Notes under the pieces: generated by a model
The model's database searches: none
Told to the model about the DNA's origin: nothing
What the model saw: the letters and a program-made list of their open reading frames with translations, nothing else
Source of the DNA: Tubulanus polymorphus
Lineage: Eukaryota > Animalia > Nemertea
Direction of reading: 5' to 3'
DNA: 64,000 nt
Assembly (NCBI RefSeq): GCF_964204645.1
Contig: NC_134029.1
Coordinates: 18,284,950-18,348,949 of the forward strand
Shown here: one piece after another, positions 18,290 through 61,600 of the stretch
Layout: each line of letters opens with the position of its first letter
How positions within the stretch are numbered: the stretch's first letter is position 1
Translations under genes and position numbers: made by a program

Positions 18290-18585
18290 CAAATTGGCAC
18301 GAATCAGACCCGAGTCAAAGTTGGCCCGTGTTTAATTAGAGAATGGTTACACGTAAACCACTCACTCGATACTAAACAATGCTCGAACGAAGCGAAGTAA
18401 TCACTTCTGGATCTAATTGCAATTCAAACGCAATAATGTTAAAATGTGGCCCGGGCCTGGCCTGATATTTTGATCAGGCCACATTTCGCCCAGGCCAAAC
18501 AGGCATTGGCTCATTTGGCAACCATTTGTGAATAGTTGTACCAGTCTAATTTAACGAAGGTCAAAATGCTCATGTGATTGCTGCA
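18290..18585 (+). mobile_element. MITE 'agccgcgatcacac' family, 5'-truncated copy
   Basis: cactcgatactaaacaatgctc...ttgcaattcaaacgcaat core. Confidence 0.75.
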
Positions 18586-45924: not shown

Positions 45925-46512
45925 ACATATATATATATTTTTTTTTTAATCATCAATGCCCACTAGGCTCCAGTAAAATGCAATTATATAAATCATAACC
46001 CAGACTAATGTATAATCTATGAGTATTATCGTAAATATGTCACCGAAATAGGTACCGTATATAAGAATATCAGTCATTAAAAATTCATTCACAGTGATTA
46101 AAAATAAGTAAAAGTCAAATACTGTATTAAAATTTCATGTTTATCCTAATGGGGAAGTCCATATTCCTATTCTTAGTTACCGAAAATCGATAAGTAAATG
46201 ATTTGTTCGTTTTGGCAAAAAAGTCATTCATAGCCTAAATGCAGTTAAATATAGTACTGTACCGATAATGGCAATATTTTCCATCAATAAACTAGGATCA
46301 CTATCAACTACTATCAAAATGGTTATTACCCCGAATATGCTAGAATAAGTGCACATCGAGCAACATCTCGGAAATCTGCGAGACAAATCATCAATTGATA
46401 CCACAAAATATACAATATTCATGAAAATAATACTTGTTAGGTAGGATCAGATACTAACACAAATAAATTTCAGTGTAAGACGATTAACTAAAATGGTCAG
46501 GAATTTTCAAGT

Positions 46513-46682
46513 TTACATTGAACGGCAAGGATTTTTCTTCCAGAGGAAATAGAGCTCGCGTTCGATTTCGCGCGTCAGCCGCATTCCAACGGTTTCATCG
46601 GTAAGCAATAATGTGTCGACGTTGTTCTTTTTCATTAGCTGATTTTCGTTGATGAAGAACGCGTACTTGTCATTCGGAGGCG
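46513..46682 (-). CDS. Last coding exon (NTR/C345C-like, part 3)
   Basis: APPNDKYAFFINENQLMKKNNVDTLLLTDETVGMRLTREIERELYFLWKKNPCRSM*. Confidence 0.8.
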
Positions 46683-49600
46683 CTACAAAATGTTAAGAAA
46701 TTTTTTGGAAAATGGAATACAAATTACCATCATGTACGAAGGAAATAAAGTACACATCTCAAGCTAATGTGTGTATGTATATAACCTCCTGTGTGGTTCA
46801 CTCAGGTCAACAGAGAAACCCCACTGGTGGTCCTATATCAGGGTGCCCAATTTTATCTGACTTGCTTTTCCCCTGACTTTTCCCCGACTATTCCCTGACA
46901 TGCATGTTGTTTTTCCTGGCTTGATCCACTAAGAATCCAATCAGCTAACACAGTCAAATATATAAGACATAGACGGAAACTTCAATTCTTCACACGATCG
47001 TAGCAATCTCAACAAATTTCCCTGACTTTTACCCGATTTTTAGCTTTTCTTACAAAATTCCCCGACCATTCCCCGATTTTCAGTTACCCGGTAAGTGGTC
47101 AACCTGTTTGTAAATATATAAACTATCTAACTGAGAATCCAGAATGGCAGTATCATAGTTCCCAGTTAACTGGATCAAAACGATAAGTTTGACTCTACAT
47201 AAAAGTTAATATTAGCCACAGATATATTCTTACCATCTGCCTCGAAAAAGTCGCAGTTGCACATACCATCCATCTCATATTTGACGTACTTATTGACAAT
47301 AACCTTTCCGCGGATGTTTGCACCAAATTTAGCCATCAATCGCACTCGCCCATCTCTCAGAATCATCGTCTTATAAACTACGAATGATAAACAACATCCT
47401 GAGTTATACAGCACAGATTTAACTGAACCATTCACTTTTCCGAATAATACTTTTACCGTACACGGTTTGGCACTGTATTCTGCCAAAGTTAGAAGTTATA
47501 TGGAAATCATAGGAAGTATTGATTAAATGAACTAATCAACAGATCATCAGAGCAAGATATTGGCTGAGCCGATAAAGTGAGCCTTATAAAATCAGGGGAC
47601 AACCCCAGAAAACGTGTGGGAATTGCATCCACGCTTTCTCTGGCTCTGAATTTTTCAAACCTCTCTGTAATAGAACTAGCAGAAGACTTGTATCATGCAC
47701 TGCCCTAGTGCTATACAAGGGCTTGAATCTTAATTGTACTGATGCACAACATACCTGATGCATGGTCGCAGTAAAGTGTCGTGATATTAACTGCTGCAGA
47801 ATCAACTGTCACACACACCGGACAGCCAAGTTTCTTATCCTTTAAAAACAGAAATATTTCTATCAGATGATCATTTTGCTAGTACTTGTAAGATATGGCC
47901 AAAAATGGAAATCGGTTTTAGACTGCGAGCTGATAGTGCCCTCGTACAAAACTTATAAGCCCAAGACCAAACTCGAATTGACTGAATTGGTATATATCCT
48001 GCCAGTATCAAACCTATACCACTGAAAATCGAGAATGAATACGAATGCAAGTACCTGGTTTTCTTCAACTGCTACTTTTTCAATCGTCTTTCTTCTAAAT
48101 CCTTTTGGAGCAGCCAAAGATTGAGGCTGAGCCGGCGCTGGCAGTCTAAGCTGCCCAGCGAATTCACCGGCGGAAAGTCGATCAAATTCCTCTTGGGTAA
48201 GGTGTGGCAAATCCTCCTTTGTTGCGGTCAATCTTTTGCAGCCAGGTAAAATTGAATAGTCTTGTATGACGTTCAGGTCTGAAATAATCACAATCAATAT
48301 GTCAACGTGTGTAGTTTAATTCAAAAGATTGACGAAATCACTGGAAAATTAATTAAATTAGTCGAACAAAGGATATTTCCTACCAGTTTCATAGTAGTCA
48401 TAAACTTTGACGTAACCGGGTTTAGCAAAATCGATATCCATATGTCGTTCAACATCAAATGATAAACACTTTCGCTGCGCGGTCAATTCGTTATAGTACA
48501 AGTAAACATAATTCTTGCTGACTTCGAACTTTTTGATCGCACCATCGGCGCGTTGAACGAGTTTCTGGATGGTTGCTTTCACGGGTATCCAACCAGATAC
48601 CATACGTACTTCGATAACGGCCATGTTGGAAGCGCCATCTGGTCGAGTGTATCTAAAAACAAGATACAATACAAGATTCAATGTCACAGGTAAGATGTTA
48701 CTAGAAGGCTTTTTACCTAATTAAAGAACTAGTGAAGTGGAGCCAGTTCTTAGTTAAATTTGAGTTGAAAATTAGTTAATTTCCAATATCTTGATCCTGA
48801 GTCCAATCTCAACCCTTAAGTTACCAATCTCACAATTTTGCGAGCACCGAACAAACATGTCGTGTCTTTTGCAACTTTTATGACATCATATTGATTGAAA
48901 TGGTTGGTTGGATGGTCAGTTGAATCTACATTTTATGTTCTTTTTTGTTAAATCGAAGTAAATTATTGGAAAAACATTTCAGTTCATTTTTGATTCTGAT
49001 TTACTATCATACCGGTACGGTATGTGATCTCCCGCACAGCAAGGGAGATCTTGGGAACTTAGATAACATACCCATGGGATACTCTTTCACGGGTTTTCAA
49101 GCACAGGCCCTCCACCAACTAAAGATGTCCCATGCCTGGTGGTGGGCACGGGTAGTAAATTTATAGCTGAAGTATATATAGCAACACTATAGCAAAAAGT
49201 AAGTAGTACCAGTGAGAAGAATTATTCCCTTAACTACTGCAAATTTTTTGCTGTATTGGTATAAGCCATTGAAGCAGAGGTGATATATTTTCGGGGGTCT
49301 ATCATGGCCCCATATTTCAACTAAATAGGCTTTGAATATTTCAAACATGTGCAAAAAATCGCTAAGAAATCACTGACTCAAAAACAAATAAATACTGTTA
49401 TCCTAGGCAGAGGAAGCGAATTCAGGTCACCCATGTCTGTGTAGGCAAGCACACTATACTAAACAGCTGGATGCTCACAGCGGGCAACTGTTTATTTTGA
49501 TCAGTGTGCGCAGTGACGTCACGTAGAGCGTCCCAACTTAAGTGGTCCAAAACTCTATCTGAAATTTAGCGTATCCGCAAAAATTTGATCCTAAAACATA

Positions 49601-55600: not shown

Positions 55601-58600
55601 TGACGCGTTACATGCATCGGATTATCAGTTCTATATGATACATAATTATGGGACTATCATGGTAGTAGAGATACTACAAGTGTTGTTTGGTGAATGGCTA
55701 GCTACGATATGGCAGGCAGTGTCAAGTTAAGCTGAAAGTAAGAGAACTGTTTTCATAGTTACCCGACAGTTTCAAGGTCGAACAACCACGTTTCGGGGAA
55801 GTATGACCTAATTTCACTTGTTGCTTGTCTTTCTTTTCTCCTACGCTGAACAGAATGATCTTGTTTAATAACTGCACCCCCGGAGGCCATCGGAACTGGC
55901 CCTAGTCAAATCAAGAGAAAATTGAGTCTGAAGTTATAAGCATATTTATAAGAAGCCAAATATCGCAAGACATTCTAGTATGATGCTCCAGACTATGATC
56001 ACGTGGGATATGTATTTTTAGCAAGAAAATGCATGGCCCAGGATTTATCCCAGATGATTCATGTCCTGAGACATTTCATTTGTTGTGAATTTCAAAACAT
56101 ACATTTTATCATCAAAATTTCTTTTAAATAGTTTCACAAGATTATTGTTGTATTATCATGAAAATGGTAGAACTTGTTAACAGAGTGAATAAGCTTGAGG
56201 TTGTGATGATAGATATTGAGGGTTACCATGCTGACTAGAATATCATTCAAAATCAGTTCAAAAAGTCTTATTTCACCAGAAGGATTATCTGAATATGAAG
56301 CAGATGACCAACACCAAAAGCCCTGTTCTATGTTTGAGACTTAAGCCTCAATCGCGAAGAGATGATTCGGCTGGGTAAACAGGCACCGGCCCATTTGGCA
56401 GCCCAGCGAACAACCAAATTTGATCCGGGGGAAAAACGTTTGTGTGTTCATGGTTTCAAGATAGAATTAAACCACCAGTAAGCTAATTCAGATCCTCTGT
56501 AGCAAATTAAAACTTATCTTAAGATTTAATTCCAATTAACTGTTTCAAACCTCTAAGTCAAACATAGAACACGGCTGCAGGTAACCATTTCGTGAAGCTT
56601 TATTTTTATTGAAAATCTATCGAATTAATCCACTAATAACACCGTGATCAGCTATTGAATCACGAATAACGAGGCGATTCATTTCAATAACATAAATCAG
56701 CTTCGCAAAACAGACCACCGATGATTTCTATTTGATATCCTAACTCGTCAATCGCAGAAAAGATACAGGAATCAAATGGTATTATCAGTGATAGTTATGA
56801 TTGATGCATTTGTGAAAGTACCTTGACCACCATCATCATCAAATTCGACTGCATCTGCGATTCTCCAGTAAGCCTCTCTCACTATACCACATGGACGAGT
56901 TTCAATATCAAAATCGCTCATGACCAATGAACCAACATCCTAATATAGTGATTTACGTTAGCAGTGCATATGTTAAGCAAATGATTATGTTACATGCCAT
57001 GGACACATGTTCATGCAAAATATCAAAAGGAAAGTTTTCGAACAGGAAGAAACGAAATCGACATTTCTCAGAATTATTTCACATGCATGAACATGATCCA
57101 AAAGCAAGTTATGTCTTTTCAGCCAGCCTTCAGGGTTTCAATTCGAACATGTGGCATGGAAAAAATTGTGACAAGTAAGAATTCTATAAAGAAGATCTCA
57201 ACATCTCTTTTAAGCCACCCTGGACACTTGCGAATTTTGTCCCCGCAATGCGTTGTGGCAAGGCGTGCCATTTCGGTGGTACATCACAGACATTTAGATG
57301 CTTATGATGCAATGATGCGTGCCGAATATTCGAACATTTTAAAATTCTCTCTACAACATGGCACACCCCCTCGCACCCTTCACACTCCTCACGCTCATTC
57401 CTGATGACTTTAAGTAATGGCACGCTGAAGTGCGTGCCATTGCGGGGACAAAATTAGTGTAAGTGTCGACGTCGCTTTACTCATTCTTACTATTCCAGTG
57501 TCGGACTAGATATAGCGGTATGATATATTTTGACCAAATTTCTGAAATTTGAAGCCCTAATAAATGGCCTTCATGATTAAACATTTAACTGACCGAGCTT
57601 TACTTTAGCTTTCAGCAATTGTCGGGTACGTATCTTTCATTTACAGGCCGATGCTAAATGATACCCTTATCAAACCCTTGAACATGAAAGTAGGTAGCTT
57701 TCCAACAAGAAATAGTATTGCCGAAAAAGGAGGCAACCTTATGAAATCATTTGAATTCCAATCAGCAGAACGCCAACAATTTTTCTGCCAAAACATTTTT
57801 GTCAACGGTATGAATTTTATTTTATTCTTTTTAGTCAGCATAGTTGATTTCACTGACCTAAACGTTAATTGACCCCACAGGGTTGCAGTCAAAAAGATGA
57901 CAAATGAATTCATTTGAAAATGGATTAACACAGATGTTCTATGACGGCCAGAGAAGAACCAGTTTTGTTCCCAGCAGTGAGGTAGGTTCGTAAGGGCCAC
58001 GCCAAATAAATAGTGAAATCAAATTGCTAATTGAAATGAGGAAGAGGGAAAAGTCATGCCTATCTCAAGATTAAAGCTGATACTGAACTTCCAGGTTTAC
58101 CATGATTTGTGAAATATGGAAGAAAGCTAAAATCAATATCGCAGCGCCTTGTTTCAAGTGAAAAATCACTTAATATCAATATGCCTACATCCTGAGTAAC
58201 AAAAAACATGACAATTAAACAGTTTTAGACACAGTTATGTTGATACGCGTATTACTAACTTCTAATCAAAATTCTATGTAAAATGGAGGTCTGTCTGCTT
58301 CTGTTGTCAATAAGAGCTTTGCGATGAATGTTGCTGTTATATGATACAGATAGTCAGATCTGGTGAAAGACCCACTAATACCCTGAAAGCTGGCCGACTA
58401 ATAGACACGGGCACATTGGCGAATTATTACCTGCAGGACCTGGCACACTGGCCCTCGAATACGCTACGACATAAAGAACTTGTTTACAAGGCCTCGTTTC
58501 AATTTCCAAGTCGGTCGAAACTACGAAGCCTAAATCCTAGTATAAGTAGAGGAGAAATCACGATGATTGAATTTCTAGCCGGAAACAATTCAAACCCTTC

Positions 58601-61600
58601 TGGTGAGTGAGCTTGGACCAATAATATCACAAAGTTAATGCATCATGATAACCATGCAGCCCAGGCCTATCAAACTACCAAACCATTCAATATCCTTCAA
58701 CAACGAAAAATAATTACCACGTCGGCCCTGTTTACGTCTCAGTTTTGTTTTCCTATATGCAATAGAAATTGCATGGCATGGTCTGGTTTCGATCTGTAGA
58801 TTGCTTATAACTGTGACACCTACATCCTAGCAAAATTTACGGTTAACTCTTTCAACTCTTCTAAACATTGAACCACTCAATATACAGTACAATATGAAGA
58901 GTAACTGCTAGACTTCAAATACTGACAAACGTTAAATCAGGGAGACCAATGAGCTTGAATAATTCAAAGTCTGAACTATGTATCTTCGACGTGGTTTTGT
59001 TATATCGAGATAACATTCGGTCATTTAGTCATCAAGCAAACCTCTTATGTACCTTCTATTCTCAAATTAGAAGTAGTGGATGTTTTTATACAAGCGACTA
59101 GCACTGACATTAATGAGTTATTGCTAAATTTGTTAATTACAAGTTTCGGCCACAATTCTGTCAATTTATATCCAAACAGCTAAACTACTGAAATCATTTG
59201 AAATGCCTTGACTGAAGTTCTGAATAAACAGCAAACAAGTTAATCTATCGCAAGTAGCAATAGCGCTTATACCACGAGTTTGCAGAGCCAATCATTTATT
59301 CAAAAGTATACCGTCCTAACTAAGGAAGAATAAATATCAGTGTTTTGTTATATAAGTTAAACTAAAATGCCAAAATTCTTCTTTATAGAAAATTCTTCCC
59401 AATCATTTGGTTATCAAATCGACTCATTCAATTCATTTCTACATACAGGTTGGTCAAGGTGATTACAAATTCAGCCAGGAAGGTTAGTTGAATCAGTGAT
59501 TCATTAAGTATTGATACATGATATTAGTGAAAAAGATAAATCAAACTGACTAAAAATCCACAGCATTTGTGGCATATTACCATCTTCCAAAGACGACATA
59601 AGAAACACTACTCTGGGTTCTTTGAAATCGCAAGGTCTCGTTTCAATGTCAAAATCAGTTAATATCGCAAAACTGACATCCTATTCGGGAATACATTTTT
59701 AACAACAAATAGAAACATTTCATTTCACGCAAACAGCAGTAATACATCAAACAAACATTCAATCTCTACTGAATTCAAGCCATATTGATTGAAATTATTT
59801 ACCTTGAACGCTTTGATTGAGTCGTAATACGAACTAGAACGGCCAGACCAAGGAAATCTAACATCACGTCGCTGTCGGTTGTCACCAGGTGGCCCAGCGG
59901 GCATAGGAGGCCCACGAGGATCGTGTCGAATATCTAAAACATTTTAAAAGCAAATTTCACCGAATTTCTACCAAACATATCAGGCATGAATAAGGTGTCA
60001 GACCATCCTTACCATCATCAGCATTTCTGCAGTGATCTCCACCAAATTCAAACGTTTCTGGACGCAGTGAAAATGAATCGACAAGTGAAACCACCTAAAA
60101 TGACCATAGATATATCAAAAATGTCAATATTCATAACTATATAGTCTTGATTCTGTTATAGCCGGTATTCATTCTAATCAACTAACTTTAGCCGGAGTTA
60201 ACTGCTTGTTGGCTTTTAGAAGGTGTACGCTCTTATCGACAACCCCAACACTGCACAATGATCCTGGAGCAGCATTCAGCTTCAGATTAACAGGTGCTCC
60301 AGGAAGCGCTTTTTCCTTCTCAAAATTCAATGAAACCTACCAATACAATAAAAGTGACGTACATGAAAATGGTGAACATATATGTGAAGTGATATACACC
60401 AGTGAACAATATGCCTTGACATTTAATGAAATTTGACATTTACCTTGTTTCGGAAACAACTCGCTACTGCAAATTCTTGACTATCAGCGATAACTTCTCC
60501 ATCGGGCCGTACACTATAAACTAACAGACGAACACCTCCGGACAGTTCTGGTTTGATGAACAACTGAATTGGTGAAAAAAAAAAAAACAACATATAATCA
60601 CTCCATTCACTTCCAGCTGACAGATAGATCTGCAGGGTTTGTAGTAGTAGTAAGGCCGAAGAAAAAGTCAGCAACTATAAGTATTTTAGTAGAAGTAAGC
60701 ACTTGATAAAGCACTTTCATAAAGCATAAGTGATACTTTATCCTTATCTACAACATAAATTGTTGAAACAAATAACAGTCATGGACAACGTTTATACTGG
60801 AATTTTTGAAATTTCTGTGACCATTTTGAAATATCGGTGAAATTTAAGCACTTTCAAAGGCCTTATTAAATTTTTTTTCAAAAGTAAGTGTAAGCACTTT
60901 GAAGCACTTTGGAGACATGCTATGAACCCTGTAAAGCCCAGTGCCCACAGCAAGAAAACCCTAGAAACAATTTTGTGCAAATCTTTTTATTCATTTCGAT
61001 GTCTAGTTCACCTGCTATTGTAACACACGGCGAGTGCAACTAGCCAACAGTGAGTAACTTACATTGATCTTGAAATGGGCAATATGTTTTTGGGTCCTTA
61101 GTTCCTCTCCTTCTTCCTCATTTTCATCGATAATTTCTGTTACTTCATCCGATTCATCTGATTCTTTAAAATGAAATACAAATATGTCATAAAATAATTG
61201 ATACAGCCTCCCATATACTGAATTCATAGTAATCTTATACTTTTTGCATATGTGCATGAATAATCAGGCCCATAACGCGACTGATTATATGGGCCGTTTC
61301 ATTTTCCGAAAAATACGGCCTTTTTGGTGAAACTTCTTGAAATGGCGCTGGAAGGTAAAAGTGTTGCGTCGTGACGGCAAATAAGCCTGCAATTGAAGGA
61401 CTCCTATGGAGTTTTATGCCAGTACTAAATACCTTGTAGGCCTAAGACCGGAAGTAGAGAGGACAAGCCTGGGATTTTATCTAATTCGAGCAAAAGCGGA
61501 GATTTTGGCTGGTTTGTCGAAAAACCCTTTAGTTCGCCCGGAGGACTGATAATCAACTGAGGTATAACTTTTTACCTCCAACTGCTGGTGCTAGTTCTGG

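Follow-up and report, generated by a model that had tools for sequence, protein, structure and literature searches.

Base-pairing between introns may help to decide which of five alternative bait exons is used in a thioester-protein gene of the ribbon worm Tubulanus polymorphus. The gene lies on the minus strand of the stretch considered here, 64,000 nucleotides (nt) of contig NC_134029.1 (positions 18,284,950 to 18,348,949; below, the window, in whose numbering positions are given), where it takes up 46.5-64 kilobases (kb) and continues beyond the end. The proposal, put forward tentatively, with moderate statistical support and at slightly less than even confidence, is that the choice is biased by pairing to a shared downstream docking site and is backed by decay of faulty transcripts. 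A short motif soon after each of the exons A, B, C, and D would pair with one site in the intron that follows E, the last variable exon. Such pairing would put the later exons into a loop and move the chosen exon's 5' splice site close to the constitutive exon Dn, and the dock would hold one selector at a time, so that the selectors would compete. Exon E is likely the default, for which a selector would be unneeded, and two stronger duplexes that cross each other may tip the choice towards D or E, depending on which of the two is looped out. Transcripts with no variable exon or with at least two contain an early stop, and nonsense-mediated decay would clear these wrong products, so that the pairing would bias the choice and need not enforce it alone.

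The bait-exon cassette

In the database the gene is represented by five RefSeq isoforms (1733-1742 residues; species label Tubulanus polymorphus), and these are identical except for a single exon between the constitutive exons U1 and Dn. In the isoform P0122 the Pfam families MG2, MG3, MG4, A2M_BRD (residues 584-668), A2M (826-914), TED (1037-1347), and A2M_recep (1453-1544) follow each other in the domain order of alpha-2-macroglobulin, and the thioester motif GCGEQ is found at residue 1059. Neither of the Pfam families for the anaphylatoxin and C345C domains of complement C3 was matched at E-values up to 1. Judged by these domains, the locus encodes an alpha-2-macroglobulin-type thioester protein, for which protease trapping through bait cleavage is predicted. 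The variable exons encode the part between the A2M_BRD and A2M domains.

The cassette consists of five mutually exclusive homologous bait exons, already annotated as isoforms. Exons B to E share 29-48% protein identity with exon A, each of the five has a length of 3n+1, and every splice site is AG/GT. The introns between the variable exons measure 754, 181, 239, and 1161 nt, in agreement with the range of 181-1161 nt given in an earlier note on this DNA, and the last intron, after E, measures 920 nt. Steric exclusion between neighbouring exons operates up to an intron length of roughly 50 nt, and since the introns between the variable exons exceed this limit it was rejected as the cause of exclusivity. 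Incompatibility with the minor spliceosome was also ruled out, every site being GT-AG. All 26 multi-exon combinations and the full skip meet a stop within 40-57 codons, and this includes the four-exon forms whose total length is in frame.

Seven joints of the cassette are present in RNA contigs, each between a variable and a constitutive exon: from U1 to A, B, D, and E, and from A, C, and E to Dn. No run was recorded as RNA, and X5, X9, and X2 are taken as RNA on the strength of spliced joints; X7 and X8 matched the region with just one 40-nt piece. Joints between two variable exons, as well as B>Dn, U1>C, and D>Dn, are not listed in the RNA contigs, which drop rare forms; the contigs are evidence of presence and not of absence or level, and their depth is a poor measure. 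Within X2 the joint depth is lowest for D. One X2 contig spans Dn, exon C, the whole B-C intron, and exon B (58430-58828), and may stem from an intermediate that is common or from a transcript that retains the intron, with a stop inside the intron when read from B. Within-species variation amounts to 14 rows of other letters in 4451 nt, nine of them in repeat stretches, which is too few for a test, and none of the 14 falls inside the dock, the selectors, or the core of 18 base pairs (bp) of the D-bracketing duplex described below.

The candidate docking site and its selectors

The earlier note proposed that one site in the last intron is complementary to the introns after both B and C. All eight of the coordinate strings it gave are found in the sequence, and the two complementary elements do overlap, with eight dock bases in common. 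Selector B can form 11 Watson-Crick pairs with the dock (58606-58596 with 56273-56283), and the G-U extension mentioned in the note brings these to 14 contiguous bp; the further 7-bp helix counted in the note reuses the G-U bases, however, and the total is 19 bp rather than 14 plus 7. Selector C can pair over 10 bp (58368-58359 with 56271-56280) and, as described, over 5 bp more past a 3-nt bulge. The second match after C that the note reported also exists, with 8 bp, but at the level of chance. Beyond the core the B and C selectors extend in different directions, which shared descent of one motif would not produce.

New here is that the introns after A and D also match the dock core, a result that depends on the settings. 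Their matches are of 8-9 bp and involve the same six dock bases. The note had seen nothing convincing after D, but the 9-bp match there (58019-58011) is equal in strength to that after A. Complementary to the dock core is the motif TCAC[CT]A. Each of the introns after A to D contains it once within its first 130 nt (at 59530, 58606, 58366, and 58016), and the four matches lie 50-111 nt from the respective 5' splice sites. The motif is found neither in the intron before A nor in that after E, with an extra copy adjoining the acceptor of E. Among the constitutive introns of two A2M genes, the present one and a paralogue, 6 of 60 contain it in their first 130 nt. The complementarity itself is observed, while the helices are inferred to form in vivo and to affect splicing. 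The B helix appears with p 0.90 in a free fold of 58900-55880 (3.0 kb); among 11 control folds just one has a long-range helix of that length (14 bp). The predicted order of pairing strength is B > C > A > D. That the dock is a repeat was ruled out by a single match in its own genome, in a search that skips common words, and none of the Rfam families matched 55700-60150 at E-values up to 1.

The pairing was compared with chance using duplex scores made up of nearest-neighbour energies and a length penalty, and the null sets were dinucleotide shuffles and 268 genomic stretches cut to the same layout; these layouts overlap and use both strands, and are not independent. When the dock was scanned freely along the last intron by helix length, the best common core was 56278-56273, with helices of 8, 14, 10, and 9 bp for A to D. 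Their summed length was reached by none of 1000 shuffles and none of the 268 layouts, and the shortest helix by 2/1000 and 9/268, respectively. Four random real introns set against the real last intron reached the sum in 0/20000 trials and the shortest helix in 70/20000, and against 21 other long introns the counts were 20/21000 and 61/21000. At least 8 bp at the dock core are reached by 5 of 46 real introns. With search windows of 130-300 nt, a core of 6 nt, and one or two G-U pairs allowed, the four-intron signal persists (sum in 0-15 of 268 layouts; 30 settings tried).

Taken singly, the B helix, as one of four introns tested, is matched by 7/300 shuffles and 11/268 layouts, while a lone 11-mer match in the B intron is found in 134/2000 shuffles. 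Perfect matches that overlap on the dock, one of at least 11 nt and the other, in a second intron, of at least 10 nt, occur in 69/2000 shuffles and 19/268 layouts if any two of the four introns may supply them, and in 1/2000 and 0/268 if the two short introns alone are considered, a restriction chosen post hoc.

A number of results weigh against the proposed dock. The two-match event, which the earlier note held to be less likely by chance than a single match, is marginal when it stands alone (p about 0.03-0.07), though with A and D included the coincidence is less likely than the note thought. The comparison of duplex energies with shuffles that was suggested there favours B but not C, whose match (-8.4) lies at the null mean (-8.5) and is the third-ranked duplex of its own intron. 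Use of whole introns weakens the four-intron signal (18 and 59 of 268 layouts; 0 and 17 of 200 shuffles), and the signal is gone if Watson-Crick pairs alone are allowed, if the core has 5 or 7 nt, or if the search window is 100 nt; the 100-nt window leaves out B, and the 130-nt window was picked after B had been seen. An energy-based scan for a common dock prefers 56407-56378, a GC-rich repeat fragment (2/150 shuffles), and the site of the note is outside its top six windows. The free fold engages selector D locally with 57844-57854 (11 bp), and 85% of the 10-mers in the last intron are more open than the dock core. After opening costs the helices of A and D are weak (-6.1 and -5.1 kcal/mol), and constrained folds give B -973.5 and A -970.7 versus C -958.5 and D -941.6, a gap of 12-32 kcal/mol. 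The order of pairing strength is not mirrored by the joints, where C>Dn is seen and B>Dn is not listed (contig depth being a poor measure), and exon A, with its weak selector, equals E in depth in X5. In a paralogue elsewhere on the contig, annotated with one isoform, the bait candidates are two exons (106 and 124 nt) separated by 61 nt; no duplex there exceeds chance (matched by 51, 61, and 179 of 500 shuffles), and the paralogue could not be aligned with the cassette. Finally, the skipping of exons upstream of the chosen one lacks an explanation because no upstream dock was found. All five pairs with the U1-A intron are at chance (115-265 of 300 shuffles), which ruled out a dock of the Dscam exon 6 type, and this intron shares no common core with the 3' parts of four introns. 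The docking logic suggested in the note is thus partly supported: it is favoured by the cassette setting, the position of the dock, and the overlapping matches, while the chance level of C, the other site picked by the energy scan, and the sufficiency of decay count against it.

Some further observations concern the same introns. Selector B may also be the branch point of its intron, since no YTCAY motifs other than those it overlaps lie within 80 nt of the acceptor, but further AG dinucleotides are found between selector B and the acceptor. The free fold also pairs the 3' end of exon C (58434-58453) with the acceptor of exon E (56922-56942), and the acceptor of exon D with its own downstream intron, both with p in the range 0.88-0.99. 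In the paralogue, the second A2M gene (L004 8090-8380; G000:C5 ~307.1-307.4 kb), an unannotated open exon of 106 nt (3n+1) lies upstream of the annotated 124-nt bait exon, and with 61 nt between them a two-exon cassette based on steric exclusion is possible.

Table 1. Exons, candidate pairing elements, and local structures of the cassette (window positions; all pairing is predicted)
Feature	Position	Strand	Remarks
Constitutive exon U1	59803..59933	-	Phase 0 at its end, last before cassette; joined to A, B, D, E; in all five isoforms
Bait exon A, 100 nt	59581..59680	-	Joints on both sides in run X5; isoform P0121
Bait exon B, 109 nt	58718..58826	-	U1>B joint in X2; isoform P0001
Bait exon C, 106 nt	58431..58536	-	C>Dn joint in X2; isoform P0123
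Bait exon D, 91 nt	58101..58191	-	U1>D joint in X2; isoform P0124
Bait exon E, 118 nt, last variable	56822..56939	-	Joined on both sides (X5, X2) or upstream (X9); isoform P0122
Constitutive exon Dn	55763..55901	-	First after cassette, starts in phase 1; joints from A, C, E
Candidate docking site	56263..56294	-	Shared core 56273-56278 (UGGUGA); single-copy in own-genome search
Candidate selector A	59525..59536	-	8 contiguous bp, 12 with 1-nt bulge; net -6.1 kcal/mol
Candidate selector B	58588..58606	-	14 contiguous bp, 19 across 3-nt bulge; net -14.6 kcal/mol
Candidate selector C	58347..58373	-	10 contiguous bp, 15 across 3-nt bulge; net -8.8 kcal/mol
Second 8-bp match after C	58294..58301	-	To 56297-56304; chance level
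Candidate selector D	58011..58019	-	9 contiguous bp; net -5.1 kcal/mol
D-bracket duplex, 5' arm	58374..58408	-	18 contiguous bp at 58380-58397, 29 bp in total; single-copy
D-bracket duplex, 3' arm	57111..57142	-	Single-copy
E-bracket duplex, 5' arm	57354..57400	-	Inside repeat-derived palindromic element (~57210-57467)
E-bracket duplex, 3' arm	56187..56240	-	Directly downstream of candidate dock; also 13-bp match from 57832-57844
Local stem	56319..56576	-	19-nt arms, 95% complementary; encloses dispersed-repeat fragment; 25 nt upstream of dock

Exon-bracketing duplexes and competing explanations

The pairing might instead be due to chance or be a leftover, with the exon chosen by splice-site strength and tissue-specific splicing proteins and the exclusivity produced by frameshift and nonsense-mediated decay. 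This is a serious contender, if somewhat improbable in itself. With all five exons of length 3n+1 and an early stop in each of the 26 multi-exon forms and in the skip, decay alone can yield apparent exclusivity, which is a further point against the dock. The marginal two-match event, C at the null mean, a pairing strength out of step with the joints, and the paralogue without a signal all agree with such an origin. When all pairs of introns are considered, 4 of 15 are at p <=0.03 by shuffles and none of 300 shuffle sets equals that, but 23 of the 268 genomic layouts have at least four intron pairs as extreme by rank. Less easily accounted for by chance is that all four upstream introns converge on a single core of 6 nt, with the match at a comparable distance from each 5' splice site, and decay clears the wrong products but picks no exon.

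The strongest duplexes of the cassette, both missed by the earlier note, bracket exons D and E and cross each other. The D bracket joins 58397-58380 with 57136-57119 in 18 bp, two of them G-U pairs (p 0.99 in the free fold), and is matched by 0/300 shuffles and 4/268 layouts. The E bracket is an imperfect duplex of ~40 bp between 57400-57354 and 56233-56187 (1/300 and 20/268), and a weaker one brackets C (8/300 and 22/268). The net energies are -27 to -30 kcal/mol for the D bracket, -28.5 for the E bracket, and -13.6 for the C bracket, and of 56 real neighbouring-intron pairs one scores as low as the D- and E-bracketing duplexes. On the antisense strand the brackets are weaker (-15.9 versus -23.9 and -11.7 versus -22.2), although controls too show sense-over-antisense gaps of such size. 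Stems bracketing A or B are at chance (195 and 270 of 300 shuffles).

The palindromic element that holds the 5' arm of the E bracket (57210-57467) has 18-nt perfect inverted arms, a 74% copy of its interior on G000:C9, and a shorter form or ends on G000:C8; it is possibly a small non-autonomous element carrying an insertion. The 3' arm aligns with the 5' arm (0/2000 shuffles) and weakly with the C9 copy (68/2000), and an origin of the E-bracket duplex from an inverted repeat is therefore likely. That one arm of this duplex lies in a repeat, that 20 of the 268 layouts match the duplex, and that a variant at 56199 in the DNA run X6 disrupts one of its pairs all speak against the part given to it in the proposed mechanism. 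An excess of G-U pairs in the duplex was ruled out as proof of RNA selection, because the G-rich arm and the fold-based alignment favour G-U and controls show similar strand gaps. When it comes to the local stem at 56319-56576, the idea that its arms are transposon ends was rejected: all four inspected copies are without shared flanks, and the dispersed repeat consists of the interior alone. The 14-nt arm pattern of this stem has 15 matches versus 5 for a control. The dispersed-repeat fragment itself covers 56370-56452, with relatives at window positions 18497, 34795, 35506, and 36690 and in L027.

It has to be considered that structure acts through exon-bracketing stems and not through a shared dock, with some of the arms coming from inverted repeat copies. 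The 18-29-bp duplex would then loop out D, the 40-bp one E, the weaker one C, and the B helix exons C to E. The brackets of D, E, and C are indeed the strongest duplexes of the cassette both by the chance tests and by net energy, they lose strength on the antisense strand, and the low joint depth of D in X2 agrees with its being looped out; moreover, the D and E stems cross like the two stems of the Drosophila gene srp (PMC4691838). Even so, the explanation is unlikely. No stems stand above chance around A or B, the D stem alone would set C beside E and give an out-of-frame product, the strand gaps are shared by controls, and one arm is repeat-derived and stays in a local hairpin in its free fold. 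Very improbable, finally, is that TCAC[CT]A serves as a binding site for a protein, was duplicated together with each exon, and has been maintained by selection, with an incidental complement in the last intron: the motif is present in 4/4 introns after A to D, which otherwise are barely alignable (one of ten pairs at 11/1000 shuffles, the rest at 125 or more), and the helices of A and D are, by themselves, too weak to be relied on, but the intron after E is without the motif and B and C pair well beyond it.

The docking proposal can also be stated in its fullest form, as a complete downstream docking system with four selectors and a six-base core, joined to crossing stems that toggle between D and E and of which one comes from an inverted repeat. 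In that form it is regarded as rather unlikely.

Known systems, related genes, and significance

Competition between selectors for a docking site has been demonstrated mainly in arthropods and in a few mammalian genes, and the primary paper on the downstream system is reportedly that of Yang et al. 2011. Downstream docking/selector systems are described for insect 14-3-3zeta, Mhc, MRP1, and the clusters of exons 4 and 9 in Dscam1 (PMC6071210, PMC4691838). Like these, the T. polymorphus cassette has tandem homologous exons, a candidate site in the intron after the last variable exon, and overlapping complementary elements after earlier exons, and the last exon would need none. The insect elements were found by cross-species conservation and confirmed by compensatory mutation, whereas those presented here are predicted from one genome; two of the four selectors are of 8-9 bp, and the phylum and the gene family are different. 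A metagenome scan gave 12 loci of 42-64% identity and no close relative, and no usable bait cluster was seen in 10/12 inspected. By analogy, the layout would work like a downstream docking system; membership is not claimed, the proven cases being defined by conservation and mutational rescue. All in all, the cassette is at best a plausible but unproven further instance of a mechanism already known, with phylum and gene family both new to it.

In Drosophila srp the pairing is bidirectional, with two crossing stems and an upstream dock before the first variable exon (PMC4691838). Two crossing predicted stems, each bracketing one of two neighbouring variable exons (D and E), are likewise found here, but the intron before A shows no pairing above chance, the upstream arm lies after C, and one arm is repeat-derived. 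Exon skipping through inverted repeats, for instance Alu pairs, has been reviewed (PMC11802352). The E-bracket duplex similarly joins a repeat-derived arm to a diverged inverted relative, though over ~40 bp and not hundreds, and its effect on splicing is a prediction.

Mutually exclusive bait or variable exons are known from other thioester proteins (TEPs), such as Drosophila Tep2 (five isoforms), Chlamys farreri TEP (six exons), and Biomphalaria BgTEP2 (12 exons), and BgA2M, BgCD109, and shrimp A2M also have alternatively spliced bait or variable regions (PMC7016707). As in these invertebrate TEPs, the mutually exclusive exons of T. polymorphus fall in the protease-sensitive central region. 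The available part of PMC7016707 offers no splicing mechanism for TEP bait exons, and that of PMC6071210, from 2018, counts TepII among the clusters for which no competing structure has been reported. The available parts of PMC3912159 and PMC12846816 are silent on pairing and on the choice of isoform. The literature search, also limited to partial texts, produced no study of RNA pairing for TEP clusters or for clusters of lophotrochozoans; supplement tables with TepII predictions lie outside that search.

Some observations on the gene and its relatives may be added. Past the receptor-binding domain the protein has a cysteine-containing C-terminal extension (window 46500-48320, ~residues 1550-1742 of P0122) without a Pfam match, and tails of similar look are present in the Lineus and Solemya proteins P0131 and P0132. 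A third thioester gene (L001-L003; G000:C7 ~19.36-19.38 Mb) has, by eye, an anaphylatoxin-type cysteine exon and is presumably complement C3-like. Three isoforms of a chiton A2M (P0006, P0125, and P0126) also differ from one another in the bait, at another junction, which suggests an independent cassette. Matches with several differences to the intron segment 52181-52624 are found in separate contigs of the RNA runs X5 and X9; the segment is probably a transcribed repeat.

Mutually exclusive bait exons widen the range of proteases and microbes that an invertebrate thioester protein can answer. According to the model of PMC6071210, competing RNA structure arises whenever exons duplicate. With a compact five-exon cassette of 4 kb in which the bases are named, both the choice of bait and the rise of structure upon exon duplication become testable in one minigene. 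Should the docking proposal fail, the cassette would be an ordinary further example of bait splicing. If it is true, Dscam-like RNA competition would have had a convergent origin in a lophotrochozoan, and the cassette would provide the first mechanism for the choice of bait exon in any thioester protein, within the partial literature searched.

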